Shown piece by piece: positions 7,169 through 26,678 of a stretch of 32,000 nucleotides of DNA. Position numbers and translations under genes: made by a program. Location: positions 3,960,001 to 3,992,000 of the forward strand of contig NZ_CP021983.2 in the NCBI RefSeq assembly GCF_002075285.3. Reading direction: 5' to 3'. Source of the stretch: Halomicronema hongdechloris C2206. Lineage in GTDB: Bacteria > Cyanobacteriota > Cyanobacteriia > Phormidesmidales > Phormidesmidaceae. The notes beneath the pieces were generated by a model. It had not been told where the DNA came from. It did not search any database and was given only the letters and a program-made list of their open reading frames with translations. How positions within the stretch are numbered: the stretch's first letter is position 1; each line of letters begins with the position of its first letter.

Positions 7169-8641
7169 TCAGCTGTTAGATGGACCATTGAGGCGAGGGC
7201 GGCGGCGATGCCACTCGGTAGCCTGCTCATAGGCATAGCCCACCTCGAACAGCAGATCCTCCCGCAGCACATTACTGATGAGCTGTAGGCCGATGGGCAA
7301 CCCTTGCTCATCAAAGCCGCAGGGCAAACTCATGGCCGGCAAACCGGCTAGGTTTACCGGGATCGTCATCAAGTCAGACAGATACATACCCAGGGGATCA
7401 TCGGTTTTTTCACCGGCCTGGAAGGCAGTGGTGGGCGAGGTGGGACACACCAACACATCCACCTGATTGAAGGCATTCTCGAAGTCTTGTTTGATCAGGG
7501 TCCGTACCTTCTGGGCCTTGAGATAGTAGGCGTCATAGTAGCCTGCCGAGAGGGCGTAGGTGCCAATCATGATCCGCCGTTTCACCTCGGCCCCAAATCC
7601 CTGGGCTCGGGTCCGGGTGTACATCGACATCAAACTAGTGTCGTCAGTGCGCAGACCATACTTGACGCCGTCATAACGGGCCAGGTTGGAAGAGGCTTCA
7701 GAGGGGGCAATGATGTAGTAGGCCGGTAGGCCATAGCGAAAGCGGGGACAGGAAATGACTTGAATCTCGGCCCCCAGCTCCTGCAACTGCTGAATTGCCT
7801 TTTCTACCGCTGCCTGCACCACCGGGTCTAGGCCACTGCCGAAGGTCTCCTGAATCACGCCGATGCGTCGCTTGCTGCGTTGGTTCAGGCGAGGCCGCAG
7901 GGCCTGACCGTAGTCGGGCACCGGTTGGGGAATACTGGTGGCATCCCGGGAATCGTGGCCAGCAACCGCCTGCAACAGAATGGCAGCATCCTCGACGGTG
8001 TAAGCCAGGGGACCGATCTGATCGAGGGAAGAGGCATAGGCTACCAGGCCATAGCGAGACACCCGACCATAGGTCGGCTTCAGCCCGACGATGCCGCAAA
8101 AGGAGGCCGGCTGCCGAATGGAGCCGCCGGTGTCGGACCCCAGGGCCGCTACACATTCGCCGGCGGCAACGGCGGCGGCGGATCCTCCAGAAGACCCTCC
8201 TGGTACCCGTTGGGGATCCCAAGGATTAGCCGTCAGTTGATAGGCAGAATTCTCCGTGGAGCTGCCCATGGCAAACTCATCCAGATTGGTCTTGCCCAGG
8301 CAGATGGCTCCCGCTTGGGCCAGGCGTTGGGTCACGGTGGACTCGTAAGGGGGGACAAAATTGCCCAACACCTTGGAGGCACAGGTGGTGCGGATGCCGT
8401 GGGTACAGAGGTTATCTTTCAATCCCAATGGGATGCCGCTGAGTAACCCCAGGGACTCTCCGGCCGCGAGCTGGACGTCTACCTGTTGGGCTTGGGCCAA
8501 GGCTAGCTCGCCAGTGACGGTCAAAAAGCTGTTTACGGTGGGTTCCAGTTGCTCTAGCTGAGCCAGATATTCCTGGGTAATCTCAACTGCCGAGCGTTCT
8601 TTATTGACCAGTTGCTGATGCAGTTCGCGAATCAAGGACAT
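7169..8641 (-). CDS. gatA: Glutamyl-tRNA(Gln) amidotransferase subunit A
   Basis: Amidase signature [14 protein letters not shown] and catalytic-Lys block LGLKDNL. The N-terminus [22 protein letters not shown] is typical of GatA. The start is taken at ATG 8641; the ORF-track start 8659 is a TTG six codons upstream. Confidence 0.95.
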
Positions 8642-16981: not shown

Positions 16982-17017
16982 GCCTACCTAGGCGATTCCC
17001 CCCTTTCCTGCACTTCT

Positions 17018-17979
17018 ATGCCCACTATCGCCCCCAATCACCCCGCCTGCATCCCTTCCAGACGCCCTGGTGTTGGCTCTATGCCCTGTGGAAGTTCTCG
17101 CGACCCCATACCATTATCGGCACCAGTTTCAGCGTGCTGGGGTTGTTTGCCATCGCCGCCGCTACCATCCCCGCCCCTGCCATCGCTTGGGGGGAGTTGG
17201 CCTGGGCCTGGTTGGCCTGTTTGGGGGGCAATCTCTACATTGTCGGCCTGAATCAGATTCAGGATATCGAGATCGATCGCATCAATAAGCCCCCACCTCC
17301 CCCTGGCATCCGGGGAATTTTCCCGCCGCGATGGCTGGTGGCTGGTAGGCGCAGCTGTGATCGTGGCCCTGGGGCCTAGGCGGGGGGGCGGGGGATATCT
17401 GTTTGCCACTGTTGCCATCAGTGTGGTCATCGGCACCGCCTACTCCCTGCCCCCTATACGGCTGAAGCGATTTGCCGTCTGGGCCTCGGCCTGCATCTTG
17501 GTGGTGCGCGGGGTGGTGGTGAATCTGGGGTTGTTTCTGTATTTCGCTGCCGCCCAGCAATCTCCAGGGATTCCCCCCATCATCTGGGCCTTGACCGGGT
17601 TTGTGGTGGTCTTTAGCGTTGCGATCGCAATTTTCAAAGACATCCCCGACATCGAAGGCGATCGTCAATATAATATCCGCACCTTTACCGTTCGCTTGGG
17701 GCAACGCACCGTCTTCAACCTAGCCCGCGGGTTACTCACCCTGGCTTACCGGCGGTATGATGCTAGCGGCTCCCTGGCTGCCAACCGTCAACCGTCTAGG
17801 GCTAGTCATGGCCCATGGTCTGGTCCTAGGCAGCTTTTGGTGGCTGAGTCAGCAGGTTATCTGGCCCCGCGCCCCCCCGCCGACGGCTCCGGTTTTCCTA
17901 TCGCAGCTTTTACCAGATCATCTGGGGGTTCTTTTTCCTGGAATACGTGATTGTCCCAGTAGCGTGTTGGCTACAGTAA
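17018..17979 (+). pseudogene. Homogentisate phytyltransferase (UbiA family, tocopherol pathway, slr1736/VTE2-like) interrupted by multiple frameshifts
   Basis: Homology is continuous only across frame hops. WKFSRPHTIIGT...GLNQIQDIEIDRINKP reads in frame 1 up to 17292. HLPLASGEFS...GTAYSLPPIRLKRF...FKDIPDIEGDRQYNIRTFTV reads in frame 2 over 17294-17749. GGMMLAAPWLPTVNRLGLVMAHGLVLGSFWWLSQQV reads in frame 0 over 17751-17858. FYQIIWGFFFLEYVIVPVACWLQ then reads in frame 1 to TAA 17977-17979. Premature stops fall at 17377-17379 and 17948-17950. Confidence 0.75.
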
Positions 17980-21960: not shown

Positions 21961-23448
21961 TTAGCCTTTAAGTTTCTCACCCAGCAGTTGATTGGTCAGC
22001 TTCGGATCAGCCCGCCCCTCAGTCTGCTTCATGACTTGTCCCACAAAAAAGCCCTGAAGTTTCGTCTTGCCAGCCCGATACTGCTCCAACTTGTCAGGAT
22101 TGTCAGACAATACCTGATCAATGATAGCCCCTAGTTCAGTTGGATCCGACAGCTGACTCAGGCCCCGTTCCTCGACGAGAGCCTGGGGAGATCCTCCATC
22201 CTGTAGCAGTTCCGGCACAATTTCCTTCGCAATCTTCGTACTAATAGTGCCCGCTTCAATCAGTTGAATCATCTCCGCTAAGGATGCCGGGGACAGAGCA
22301 ATCTGATCAATCGTCAGTTTTTCAGCATTTAAGTAGGCTGCAATATCCTGCGTTACCCAGTTGGCCGCCAGTTTAGCATTAGCCCCGGCTGCCACGGTGG
22401 CCTCAAAGTACTCAGCGACTGCACGCTCATCGGTTAGCACCCGCGCATCGTAAGGGGATAAGCCAAAGGCCGTCTCATAATGCCGACGCTTTTGGGCCGG
22501 TAACTCCGGTAACTCGGCCTGCCAGGTCGACAGTTGCTCTGCCGACACCTCTAGCGGCGGCAAATCCGGTTCCGGGAAGTAGCGATAATCGCTCGATCCT
22601 TCCTTAGAGCGCATGCTGATGGTGCGTTGACTCCCTTCCTCCCAGAGGCGAGTTTCCTGGATGATTGGCTCTCCTGCTTCCAGGGCCTGCACTTGCCGTT
22701 CGATCTCATGGTCGATGGCCTTCTGGATGGCACTGAAGGAGTTCATGTTCTTGATCTCTACCTTGGTGCCAAAGGCCTCTTGCCCCAACGGCCGCACCGA
22801 GACATTGACATCACAGCGCAGGGAACCTTCCTGCATATTGCCGTCGCTAATGCCCAGATATCGCATGATGCGGCGTAACTCTTGAGCATACTCAGCCGCC
22901 TCCTGTCCCGATCGCAAATCAGGTTCAGAGACAATTTCGATCAACGGCACCCCGGCCCGATTGTAATCCACCAGCGAATAGGCCGATCCCGATAGGCGGT
23001 CACTGCCAGCATGGACCAGCTTGCCAGCATCTTCTTCCATATGTAGGCGGGTAATGCCGATGCGCTTGCGGGTAGCCTCTTTGCTTTGCTTGTCAATTAA
23101 CTCGATCTCCAACCAGCCATGCTCGGCAATGGGCAAATCGTACTGGGAGATCTGATAATTCTTGGGCAGGTCAGGGTAAAAATACTGCTTGCGATCAAAC
23201 TTACTATAGGGAGCGATCTGACAATTCAGCGCGAGTCCTGCTTTGACAGCATATTCCAGTACCGTCCCATTCAGCACTGGCAGTACCCCCGGCAAGCCCA
23301 TCACAATCGGATCAACATGGGTATTGGGGACAGCCCCAAAGGCATTTGAACTGGGCGAAAAGATCTTGGTATCGGTACATAGCTGACAATGCGTTTCCAG
23401 GCCAATAATGGCCTCATACTGAGTCTTCACAGGAGCCGCGGAAGTCAT
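21961..23448 (-). CDS. gatB: Aspartyl/glutamyl-tRNA amidotransferase subunit B
   Basis: 495 aa. [14 protein letters not shown]-terminus, the blocks [19 protein letters not shown] and [10 protein letters not shown], and a C-terminal YqeY-like domain ending [23 protein letters not shown]. Confidence 0.95.
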
Positions 23449-23560
23449 GAAGAACTTTTCCCATGGCAGAGGTGGACGTGTTTATTGTAGCCCGCTTGAG
23501 CCCTGGGGATGGATCGCCCATACTAATTGCTACCACTCATTCTAGTGATCACCGACCCCA

Positions 23561-23746
23561 ATGGAGAAACAATACGACAGCCGCATCTATGTAGAGCAAA
23601 TGGCCTTGATGCTGGGCTTATCCTTGCCACCTGACAGCCAAATGGGGGTCATAGACGCCTTCGAGCAACTGCGAGCGGTGGCGCAACCGGTGCTGAACTT
23701 CCCCTTACCGGATGATTTGGAAGTGGCTCCCATCTTTGAACCATGA
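23561..23746 (+). CDS. AtzG-like small protein (DUF4089-type), probable small subunit of the downstream amidase
   Basis: 61 aa. The pattern YVEQMALMLGLSLPPD....V...FEQLRAVAQPVLNFPLPDDLEVAPIFEP matches my recollection of AtzG/DUF4089 proteins (...A..LGL.L......V..N...L......L..FPLPD..EPAPVF). Its stop overlaps the amidase start in ATGA at 23743-23746. Confidence 0.6.
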   Translation: MEKQYDSRIYVEQMALMLGLSLPPDSQMGVIDAFEQLRAVAQPVLNFPLPDDLEVAPIFEP

Positions 23747-25149
23747 CATCTACCCCGGATGCCTTAGGGATTGCCAACTCTATCCGCCGTGGCGAACGGA
23801 CGGCGACCGAAGTCATTGCCGCAAGCATAGCTCAGATTGAAGCCCTAAATCCCCAGCTCAATTGTTTCACGGCTATCACTGCTGACATGGCCCGAGCGAT
23901 GGCAGCCGATATGGACCGGCGCCTCAGTACCGGCGAAGACCCAGGCCCCCTAGCCGGGGTTCCCTTCGCCGTAAAAAATCTCTTCGATATTAAGGGGCTC
24001 ATTACCTTAGCCGGTTCCCGCATTCATCGCGAGCGCCCTCCAGCTCACCAAGATGCCACCCTGATTACTCGTCTGAAACAAGCTGGCGCTATCTTGGTAG
24101 GGGCCCTCAATATGGATGAGTATGCCTATGGCTTCGTGACCGTCAACAGCCACTATGGCATTACCCCAAATCCCCACGATGTAACTCGCATAGCCGGTGG
24201 CTCCTCAGGAGGGTCGGCAGCCGCCATAGCCGCAGGGGTAGTGCCCCTGACCCTAGGATCGGATACGAATGGCTCCATCCGGGTTCCCGCTGCCTTGTGC
24301 GGAGTTTACGGATTTAAGCCCACCTACGGCCGTCTGTCCCGAGCCGGAACCTACCCCTTAGCCAATAGCCTTGATCATGTGGGGCCCCTGACTCGCTCGG
24401 TGCGAGATATGGCCGCTGCCTACGATGCCTTACAAGGCCCTGATCACCGCGATTCCCTCTGCGGTGATCGGCCCTCAGAACCCGTGAGTCCAGGGTTGGA
24501 GCAGGGCATTGAGGGGATGCGTATCGCCGTGGCTGGAGAGTATTTCAGCCAAGCAATGGAGCCGGAGGTAGCTAGGGCTGTAGACCAGGTGGCAGAGGCT
24601 TTGGGAGCTACAAAGCGAGTAGTCATCCCAGAGTCTACCCGAGCTCGGGCAGCTGCCTATGTGATTACGGCCAGTGAGGGGAGTCATTTGCACCTATCTC
24701 GCCTGCAACGTCGCCCCATGGAGTTTGACCCGGCTACCCGAGATCGCTTCTTGGCGGGAGCCATGATACCGGCAAGCTGGTATATCCAAGCCCAGCGATT
24801 TCGGCGTTGGTACCGAGATCGGATCCGATTATTATTCCAGTCAGTCGATATTGTACTGGCGCCAACGACGCCCTGTGTCGCTCCTGCCTTGGCCCAGACT
24901 ACCCTATCGATCAATGGAGAAGAGATGCCAGTGCGAGCTCATTTGGGCCTTTATACCCAGCCCCTATCTTTCGTAGGACTGCCAATTCTCTCAGTTCCGG
25001 TGCATCAACCGGGAAACCTGCCGGTGGGAGTGCAGGTCATTGCCGCTCCCTACCAAGAAGAACGAGTATTACGGGTCGCAGCCCACCTAGAGGCTATGGG
25101 CATCACGTCAGCCCCTGTTGCTGCTGTGGATGGCGATTGCCCTATCTGA
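23743..25149 (+). CDS. Amidase-signature enzyme, AtzE-like (GatA paralogue)
   Basis: 468 aa. Catalytic-Lys block VPFAVKNLFDIKG and amidase signature [14 protein letters not shown]...GSDTNGSIRVPAALCGVYGFKPTYGR. It is translationally coupled to the 61-aa ORF upstream. Confidence 0.85.
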   Translation: MTSTPDALGIANSIRRGERTATEVIAASIAQIEALNPQLNCFTAITADMARAMAADMDRRLSTGEDPGPLAGVPFAVKNLFDIKGLITLAGSRIHRERPPAHQDATLITRLKQAGAILVGALNMDEYAYGFVTVNSHYGITPNPHDVTRIAGGSSGGSAAAIAAGVVPLTLGSDTNGSIRVPAALCGVYGFKPTYGRLSRAGTYPLANSLDHVGPLTRSVRDMAAAYDALQGPDHRDSLCGDRPSEPVSPGLEQGIEGMRIAVAGEYFSQAMEPEVARAVDQVAEALGATKRVVIPESTRARAAAYVITASEGSHLHLSRLQRRPMEFDPATRDRFLAGAMIPASWYIQAQRFRRWYRDRIRLLFQSVDIVLAPTTPCVAPALAQTTLSINGEEMPVRAHLGLYTQPLSFVGLPILSVPVHQPGNLPVGVQVIAAPYQEERVLRVAAHLEAMGITSAPVAAVDGDCPI

Positions 25150-25179
25150 AATGCTGGAGAGCTAAGTTGGAGAGCTAAG

Positions 25180-25377
25180 TTGAGCGACTCAATCATCTGG
25201 TACATTCTGAAGTCAGCCACAGGACAGTGTGAGATTGTCCCGGCCTCGCAGCTACAAGACATCGACAGTGATGGCGCTGACACCTGGGGCCCCTATGACT
25301 CTAAAGCAGAGGCCATTGCCCGCCGAGTCGGCCTCATCCGCGCTGGCAAGTGTCGACCGATGCAAGCTAGCTGTTAA
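25180..25377 (+). CDS. Small hypothetical protein (65 aa) with a TTG start
   Basis: The only in-frame start is TTG 25180, which has GGAG 8-11 nt upstream. There is no internal Met until residue 61. The sequence IIWYILKSATGQCEIV...WGPYDSKAEAIARRVGLIRAGKCRP has a plausible globular composition. The family is not recognised with certainty. Confidence 0.4.
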   Translation: MSDSIIWYILKSATGQCEIVPASQLQDIDSDGADTWGPYDSKAEAIARRVGLIRAGKCRPMQASC

Positions 25378-26678
25378 CGGCTAGGAACAGCGCCGACATC
25401 CAGCTCATGGGTCTCTCGGGCCGCTCGAATTTCTTGAGCCAAGATGTCTAAGGCCTGGATATATTGCGGATCGGCTTCGGTGCCAATAGCCTCGCGATTT
25501 TCCGACAGGGCTTCCCGCTCGGATTCACTCAGCTCTACCATGACGTCTGGCGTGATGCCAGCTTTATTAATATCGCGACCATCGGGGGTTAGGTACTTGG
25601 CGACGGTGACCGCGACGCCTGAACCGTCATCTAGGCTGCGGACTGACTGGACTAGCCCCTTACCAAAGGTACGAGTGCCCACCAACACAGCGCGTTCGTT
25701 GTCTTGTAGAGCCCCAGCAAGAATCTCACTGGCACTGGCGGAGCCGCCGTCCACCAACACGACCAAGGGCCTGGTCGTCAGAGCCTTACCATTGGCAGCT
25801 TCTTCATCGATGATGCCCTGACGGTTAACAGTGGACACGATGGTGCCGTCTTCTAGCCACATGCGGGCGATATCAATACTAGAGAATAGGAGTCCCCCTG
25901 GATTGGAGCGCAAATCTAAGATGTAACCGGTGACGTCGCGCTCTTCTAGGGCTGCAATGGCCTCTTCCATCTCTTCTGCAGCATTGGCACTGAATTGAGT
26001 CAGGCGAATGTAGCCTATTGGACCTTCTGGTCCTTCCTTGTAGGCATAGCGAACGGGATGAATCTCGATGCGATCGCGAACAATGGTGTAGTCGATGCTG
26101 CGGTTCTCTCGACGAATCGTCAACGTCACCTCAGATCCCACCGGTCCCCGAATCAAGCTAACGGCCTCATTGAGATCCATGCCTGCGGTACTGTGACCAT
26201 CGATTGCTGTGATCACATCCTGGGAGCGCACCCCTGCCTCAAAAGCAGGGGTGTCTTCAATGGGGGAGACGACGACAATCTCTTCGGTCTCTTCGTCTTG
26301 GGAAATCTGAATACCGACACCAGTCAACTCTCCGGAGGTGTCGATTTGCATATTGCGAAACTCTTGAGGATCCATGAAGCGCGTGTAGGGATCCTCTAAC
26401 CTGTCCAGCATTTCGCGAATAGCCGTGTAGGCATCCTCGCGATCGCTGTAGGAACGCTGTAGATATTCCTGGCGTACAGCTTCCCAGTCCACCTGATTGA
26501 AGGTGGCATCAACATAATGACGCTCAATCAGCTGCCACACCTCATCAACCAGCTCCTTGGGGCTTTCTTCGAAAAAGGCTTGGCCCTGCGAGAGCTGAAT
26601 CCCGGCACCGGTGACAGTGACCGCCGCTACTGCCAATGCCGTTGCTCCCAGTACCAGTCCACGCTTTGCAATCGCCAT
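25374..26678 (-). CDS. Carboxyl-terminal processing protease (S41A, CtpA/B/C family)
   Basis: 434 aa. It has a signal/anchor, a PDZ region (GVGIQISQDEETEEIVVVSPIEDTPA), the catalytic block DLRSNPGGLL...GSASASEILAGAL and the TFGKGLVQS Lys block. Confidence 0.9.
   Translation of the reverse strand: MAIAKRGLVLGATALAVAAVTVTGAGIQLSQGQAFFEESPKELVDEVWQLIERHYVDATFNQVDWEAVRQEYLQRSYSDREDAYTAIREMLDRLEDPYTRFMDPQEFRNMQIDTSGELTGVGIQISQDEETEEIVVVSPIEDTPAFEAGVRSQDVITAIDGHSTAGMDLNEAVSLIRGPVGSEVTLTIRRENRSIDYTIVRDRIEIHPVRYAYKEGPEGPIGYIRLTQFSANAAEEMEEAIAALEERDVTGYILDLRSNPGGLLFSSIDIARMWLEDGTIVSTVNRQGIIDEEAANGKALTTRPLVVLVDGGSASASEILAGALQDNERAVLVGTRTFGKGLVQSVRSLDDGSGVAVTVAKYLTPDGRDINKAGITPDVMVELSESEREALSENREAIGTEADPQYIQALDILAQEIRAARETHELDVGAVPSR

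Follow-up and report, generated by a model that had tools for sequence, protein, structure and literature searches.

An AtzG/AtzE-type heteromeric amidase operon beside gatB in a cyanobacterium, with AH_C as its probable partner in triuret/biuret-type nitrogen salvage

A 32,000-nucleotide (nt) stretch of the genome of the cyanobacterium Halomicronema hongdechloris C2206 (contig NZ_CP021983.2, positions 3,960,001 to 3,992,000), which we call the window and whose own numbering we use for its features, carries an atzG-like and an atzE-like gene that are transcribed divergently from gatB. We propose that this pair is an AtzE/AtzG-type heteromeric amidase operon which, in cyanobacteria, probably works with a protein made of the allophanate hydrolase C-terminal domain (AH_C) in triuret/biuret-type nitrogen salvage, and that its place beside gatB carries no functional meaning; the AH_C partnership and the pathway role are drawn from comparative genomics. 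The atzG-like gene (DUF4089, PF13318; 23561..23746, plus strand) encodes a non-catalytic small subunit of 61 amino acids (aa), and the atzE-like gene (23743..25149, plus strand) encodes the catalytic subunit, an amidase-signature enzyme of 468 aa. The stop codon of the first and the start codon of the second share an ATGA overlap on the plus strand (23743..23746), a sign that translation is coupled within this two-gene operon. These coordinates, taken from the table of open reading frames (ORFs) and read in the sequence, agree with those of the first-pass annotation, as does the 112-nt divergent spacer (23449..23560) that separates the pair from the genuine gatB on the minus strand (21961..23448; NF004012, 710 bits, cutoff 338), a neighbour that lies outside the system. 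The spacer presumably holds both promoters. When 23300-25500 was scanned for consensus promoters and terminators, the counts equalled the shuffled expectation, and no sigma-70-like site fell within the spacer.

Judged by its sequence, the 468-aa protein is an AtzE-family enzyme and not GatA. Hidden Markov model (HMM) searches, which bore out the proposed family assignment, matched it over its full length to the AtzE-family model NF006631 (736.9 bits, cutoff 461) and to TIGR02715 (708.3 bits, cutoff 425.75), whereas the match to the gatA model TIGR00132 was partial and fell below the cutoff (322.7 bits against 481.1). The allophanate hydrolase models TIGR02713 and NF006043 gave 209-229 bits against cutoffs of 487-511, and the protein has no fused C-terminal AH_C domain. 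Among solved structures it comes closest to AtzE of Pseudomonas sp. ADP (6C62_A, E=2.8e-148), to which it is 53% identical; its identity to the GatA of the window is 35%. The genuine gatA was found where it had been placed, at 7169..8641 (TIGR00132, 658 bits, cutoff 481), on the minus strand, which had been left unstated. The amidase carries the motifs AVKN, GGSSGGS and GSDTNGSIR, and the codons of the Ser-cisSer-Lys triad span 23974..24276 on the plus strand: Lys78 at 23974-23976, the cis-Ser154 at 24202-24204 and the nucleophile Ser178 at 24274-24276. For comparison we used 80 cyanobacterial loci (GTDB, one genome per species) whose amidases are 62-68% identical to the window enzyme. All three triad residues are invariant across these 80 orthologues, AtzE and GatA. 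The alignment of the cyanobacterial enzymes has 176 invariant columns; AtzE agrees with them at 148 of these and GatA at 101. AtzEG of Pseudomonas is an obligate heterotetramer whose amidase is insoluble without AtzG, and the complex converts 1-carboxybiuret to 1,3-dicarboxyurea (PMC6219798). Homology therefore makes a strong case that the catalytic subunit is an amidase of the Ser-cisSer-Lys type, whose small helical partner, of the AtzG type, is probably obligate.

The small subunit is likewise AtzG-like, as the first-pass annotation had suspected from its sequence pattern. On PF13318 (AtzG-like, formerly DUF4089), where the cutoff is 24, it scored 68.8 bits and covered model positions 1-50 of 50; its sole NCBIfam match was HpxX (NF033624; 28.3 bits, below the cutoff of 70). 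The full-model PF13318 match and the conservation of the protein upstream of orthologous amidases show that the 61-aa ORF is not a chance ORF. Searched alone, the 61-aa sequence resembled the AtzG chain 6c62_C weakly (E=0.098); a profile built from its cyanobacterial orthologues matched the same chain over its full length (E=9e-5). The pair thus resembles AtzE-AtzG of Pseudomonas sp. ADP (6C62/6C6G) in gene order, small subunit before amidase, in the sequence and catalytic triad of the amidase, and in a small subunit that fills the PF13318 model and finds 6c62_C by profile. Unlike the Pseudomonas genes, the window pair is chromosomal, stands in a housekeeping context and is not accompanied by atzD, atzH or atzF, which were found neither among the window ORFs nor among the recurrent neighbours of the 80 loci; the window holds no s-triazine context, as had been noted.

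AtzEG is regarded as derived from GatC and GatA (PMC6219798), a view that the first-pass annotation had adopted. In an AlphaFold2 (AF2) model of the 61-aa protein (predicted local distance difference test score 86), helices at residues 7-18 and 24-45 are followed by an extended C-terminal tail. A fold search with this model ranked AtzG 6c62_C first and placed GatC/GatF-type chains from GatCAB and GatFAB structures at eight of ranks 2-13; all of these matches were weak, with every E-value above 0.1 and TM-scores of 0.44-0.57. By sequence, GatC did not appear: the 61-aa protein had no Pfam match except PF13318 at E<=1, and the orthologue profile found no GatC chain in the PDB at E<=10. At 61 aa the protein is also about 35 residues shorter than GatC chains (83-99 aa). 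The published GatC ancestry would therefore be visible at the fold level only weakly. What the pair has in common with GatCAB is the fold and triad of amidase-signature enzymes and an upstream gene for a small helical protein, and in the fold search GatC chains came next after AtzG, at non-significant E-values; it differs in the 35% identity of the amidase to the window GatA, in missing the gatA cutoff, in the lack of a GatC sequence signal and in a linkage to gatB that is not conserved. A Pfam scan of the small ORFs and the list of remaining ORFs, a check that was not fully exhaustive, turned up nothing GatC-like among the unassigned ORFs of the window, in keeping with the earlier remark that gatC is absent from it.

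The AtzG/AtzE pair is real and conserved; it is common in cyanobacteria, where annotation already covers it. Of the 80 loci, 77 carry an AtzG-like ORF ahead of the orthologous amidase gene on the same strand (33-58% protein identity), and one of the three loci without it has no upstream DNA. The AtzG-like lengths cluster at 62 aa. The ORF overlaps or abuts the amidase gene in about 35 of the 77 loci; the same is seen in loci L004, L081, L084 and L143. We found 803 homologues of the small protein; public records commonly list the cyanobacterial ones as 'DUF4089 domain-containing protein', and in databases the pair goes by "DUF4089 protein" and "AtzE family amidohydrolase". Clustering of the neighbouring ORFs of the 80 loci revealed no universal neighbour partner.

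A recurrent partner did emerge in part of the sample. In seven of the 80 loci, a gene for a stand-alone AH_C protein (PF21986, 134 bits; 130-170 aa) lies directly upstream of the pair on the same strand, and in the cultured Leptolyngbya sp. NIES-2104 and a Phormidesmis genome the AH_C, AtzG and AtzE genes overlap. Searching with the AH_C protein, we found numerous stand-alone AH_C proteins in cyanobacteria, as well as three natural AH_C::AtzG fusions of about 200 aa (P0069, P0071 and P0113). Two of them, P0069 and P0113, are encoded immediately upstream of amidase genes with a 4-nt overlap, and the encoded enzymes, which share 66-68% identity with that of the window, belong to the same orthologue group. 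The fusion genes (L081 5001-5594 and L084 2030-2644; also in L082 and L083) lie upstream of AtzE-like amidases. A survey of AH_C contexts in 56 metagenome loci gave three classes: AH_C-AtzG-AtzE operons (class 1, about 15 of the 56), stand-alone AH_C without a nearby amidase (class 2), and canonical fused allophanate hydrolases, the AH_C of which is only 33-43% identical (class 3). In NCBI records the stand-alone AH_C proteins (P0001-P0120, P0244) often go under the wrong name of 'glutamyl-tRNA amidotransferase', although they contain no GatA, GatB or GatC domain; their closest solved relative, PDB 5C5Z, carries the same wrong name.

The class-2 genes provide a biochemical context. Here AH_C adjoins a gene of the isochorismatase family, the product of which comes closest, among solved structures, to TrtA (6XIX/6XJ4, 281 bits; biuret hydrolases gave 184-196 bits), 6XIX being the triuret hydrolase TrtA (PMC7948467). 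In the cluster order we observed, the TrtA-like isochorismatase gene is divergent from the stand-alone AH_C gene, which is followed by genes for a Bmp-type ABC transporter and a ROK-family gene (L146 6309-11591; L144 5322-10105; L085/L086; L104). L104 adds a second isochorismatase that exceeds the NCBIfam cutoff for the BiuH equivalog (408 bits against 370) and a formamidase. None of these TrtA-like/AH_C/ABC-transporter clusters contains an amidase-signature gene. They are similar to the published triuret/biuret cluster trtA-biuH-trtB-atzF-bmpA-nupABC (PMC7948467, PMC12625717) but have an orphan AH_C and lack the amidase-signature gene, and to judge from their gene content they look like triuret/biuret utilisation clusters without an allophanate or carboxybiuret amidase of their own. 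In Phormidium sp. LEGE 05292, a TrtA-like/AH_C cluster (contig JADEWG010000084) occurs in the same genome as an AtzG/AtzE pair (contig JADEWG010000024, L036), with no AH_C gene within 10 kb of the latter. PMC12625717 writes atzH in its abstract where its main text has trtB, which suggests that TrtB may be AtzH-like rather than AH_C-like.

TrtA yields 1-carboxybiuret, the substrate of AtzE, and BiuH yields allophanate (PMC7948467). We envisage a route in which a TrtA-like hydrolase would supply 1-carboxybiuret and BiuH would supply allophanate, AtzE/AtzG would deamidate the N-carboxylated ureide, and AH_C, brought into the complex by AtzG, would go on to deal with the unstable N-carboxy compound that results; AtzE/AtzG and AH_C would in this way make up the terminal amidase module of triuret/biuret-type nitrogen salvage. 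In allophanate hydrolase, the fused C-domain has been proposed to process the N-carboxy product. The part given to AH_C would parallel that of this domain in AtzF, or of AtzH, in Proteobacteria. In Pseudomonas, it is AtzH that handles the unstable N-carboxy product (PMC6219798), and in the related cyanobacteria AH_C appears as the accessory protein in its place. The first-pass annotation had called the substrate unknown; homology and comparative genomics narrow it to carboxybiuret or allophanate-type compounds. We infer that it is an N-carboxylated ureide, most likely 1-carboxybiuret because the conserved columns that bear the active site are AtzE-like, with allophanate as the alternative.

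A bolder version of this proposal, which we put forward only tentatively and hold somewhat less probable than not, is that AtzE-like, AtzG-like and free-standing AH_C proteins constitute an undescribed three-part enzyme in which AtzG tethers AH_C to the amidase, that this enzyme supplies the amidase missing from the amidase-less clusters, and that the window holds its two-gene part, with AH_C encoded elsewhere. Such an enzyme would be analogous to an allophanate hydrolase or a carboxybiuret hydrolase in split form, and GatC-derived AtzG could act as the adaptor for AH_C much as GatC tethers GatB to GatA. The allophanate hydrolases AtzF and DUR1,2 (PDB 4GYR, 4ISS) offer a likeness, as amidase-signature and AH_C modules are linked in related cyanobacteria too, either within an operon or by fusion of AH_C to the small subunit; the difference is that the cyanobacterial modules are separate polypeptides that AtzG would bridge, and that the window has no AH_C. 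If the three-part enzyme is real, many cyanobacteria could draw nitrogen from triuret, biuret and related products of purine photo-oxidation, and a GatC-derived adaptor would have been reused to recruit a different partner.

Several observations weigh against an AH_C-dependent salvage role for the pair. The AH_C adjacency is confined to the seven loci mentioned, which belong to one broad lineage (Leptolyngbya-like genera), and co-occurrence of pair and cluster at separate loci of the same genome has been shown for Phormidium LEGE 05292 only. The 32-kb window contains no AH_C, TrtA-like or BiuH gene; AH_C, ureidoglycolate-lyase-like and DUF952 genes were looked for there by tblastn and HMM, and none was present. 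AH_C is probably encoded elsewhere in some lineages, this genome included. In about 12 of the 77 loci, the atzG-like and atzE-like genes stand 0.6-2 kb apart with unrelated genes between them (L019, L023, L039, L044, L045, L050, L051, L060, L066, L069, L075 and L080), so their tight coupling is not universal. The inserts encode a DUF4328-like membrane protein (four Nostocales loci, in Nostoc, Scytonema and Calothrix), a response regulator, a Uma2 nuclease, a Ser/Thr kinase-FGE protein and a DUF3574 protein; no AtzH-like gene was seen among them. Two other neighbours recur. A DUF952 gene (PF06108, 112 bits) lies just upstream of atzG-like on the same strand in 19 mostly Nostocales loci (for example, L031 9421-9771), an adjacency that may be lineage synteny only, and a gene for a ureidoglycolate-lyase-like cupin (PF04115, 39 bits) lies 0.03-5.3 kb from the pair in six of the 80 loci (L016, L024, L036, L039, L047 and L064), in varying position and orientation. 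These recurrent neighbours keep oxalurate or another ureide among the candidate substrates. Finally, NtcA-type sites (GTA-N8-TAC) were found in none of the 77 loci within 250 nt upstream of atzG-like, where about three would be expected by chance, nor in the window, so nitrogen regulation is not indicated.

Among the alternatives, the one that fares best, although we think it unlikely, is that the pair is a housekeeping amidase for another small amide, with no dedicated pathway, and that the AH_C link is confined to a single lineage and irrelevant to this genome. Unrelated housekeeping genes do surround the pair in the window and in most loci, and both the missing NtcA-type sites and the low number of AH_C-adjacent loci speak for it. 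Against it, most of the invariant residues are common to AtzE, the AH_C::AtzG fusions partner with the orthologue group of the window enzyme, and the TrtA-like/BiuH/AH_C clusters, having no amidase of their own, require one that is encoded outside them.

Slightly less probable again is that the pair acts on oxalurate as an HpxX/HpxY-type enzyme of purine (ureide) catabolism, the role proposed for the enterobacterial ggt-atzG-atzE-atzH (hpxWXYZ) genes. Oxalurate closely resembles 1-carboxybiuret, HpxY is regarded as an AtzE-related oxalurate amidohydrolase (PMC12625717), and HpxX is the only NCBIfam family that the small protein matches, but its score of 28 bits is far under the 70-bit cutoff, and neither GGT/HpxW-like nor AtzH/HpxZ-like genes were seen in the window or among the recurrent neighbours. 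The ureidoglycolate-lyase-like gene near the pair in six of the 80 loci would suit such a pathway, yet it has no fixed position, and the associations with AH_C, TrtA-like and BiuH genes are more specific. Like the proteobacterial atzG-atzE-atzH clusters, hpxWXYZ among them (PMC6219798), the window pair lies outside an s-triazine pathway and presumably acts on small nitrogenous amides; unlike them, it has no adjacent AtzH-like or GGT-like gene and misses the HpxX cutoff.

That the pair is functionally tied to gatB, by shared divergent regulation or by recruitment of GatB as a GatCAB-like third subunit, a question raised by the first-pass annotation, is highly improbable: the divergent arrangement with a spacing of 112 nt, its retention in one other locus (L004, Trichocoleus sp.) despite an amidase only 66% identical, the proposed GatCA origin of AtzEG (PMC6219798) and the weak resemblance of the AtzG-like model to GatC chains are outweighed by the absence of gatB within +/-10 kb in the other 79 of the 80 loci, by intergenic regions that cannot be aligned between the window and L004 (112 and 257 nt, no alignable block), by a full-scoring GatA already present in the window, by a small subunit shorter than GatC and devoid of a GatC sequence signal, and by fusion and operon data that point to AH_C, and not GatB, as the third partner. 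The juxtaposition is a lineage-specific gene order without functional meaning. L004 has the layout of the window with different genes downstream, and its gatB is 91% identical to that of the window, whose closest gatB relative is from Trichocoleus sp. (91% identity over 224 aa). In the window, gatA and gatB both lie on the minus strand about 13 kb apart, without gatC between them; with the amidotransferase genes dispersed in the genome, a lone gatB beside unrelated genes is not unusual here.

Taken alone, the locus is an unremarkable AtzE/AtzG pair, already named by annotation pipelines and belonging to a family that is very widespread in filamentous cyanobacteria. Literature searches on cyanobacterial AtzE and on DUF4089 returned nothing relevant; among the papers covered, such pairs are described for Proteobacteria only, in a survey that did not cover the cyanobacterial phylum (PMC6219798). 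Nor is a triuret/biuret-type salvage route in cyanobacteria described in the literature searched. The operons, fusions and amidase-less clusters together yield a testable hypothesis about the substrate, about AH_C as a third subunit and about triuret/biuret-type nitrogen salvage in cyanobacteria, and the AH_C operon and fusion evidence, taken with the amidase-less clusters, is the one lead of specialist interest, a comparative-genomic one throughout.

The rest of the window consists of housekeeping genes: ispH, ychF, gatA, radA, plsX-fabH-fabD-plsC, argJ, gatB, ctpA and ispG. A 65-aa ORF between the amidase gene and ctpA (25180-25377, plus strand) is probably not a gene, since it matches nothing in Pfam and no equivalent ORF follows the amidase in the 80 related loci. 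At 17000-17950 on the plus strand, a UbiA-family prenyltransferase of the homogentisate prenyltransferase type is split over two reading frames (motif ...NQIQDIEIDRINKP/HLPLASGEFS...). The frame breaks at a run of five C at 17290-17294 (AAGCCCCCACC), where four C would hold the frame; the cause is an error in sequencing the homopolymer or else a true frameshift or pseudogene.

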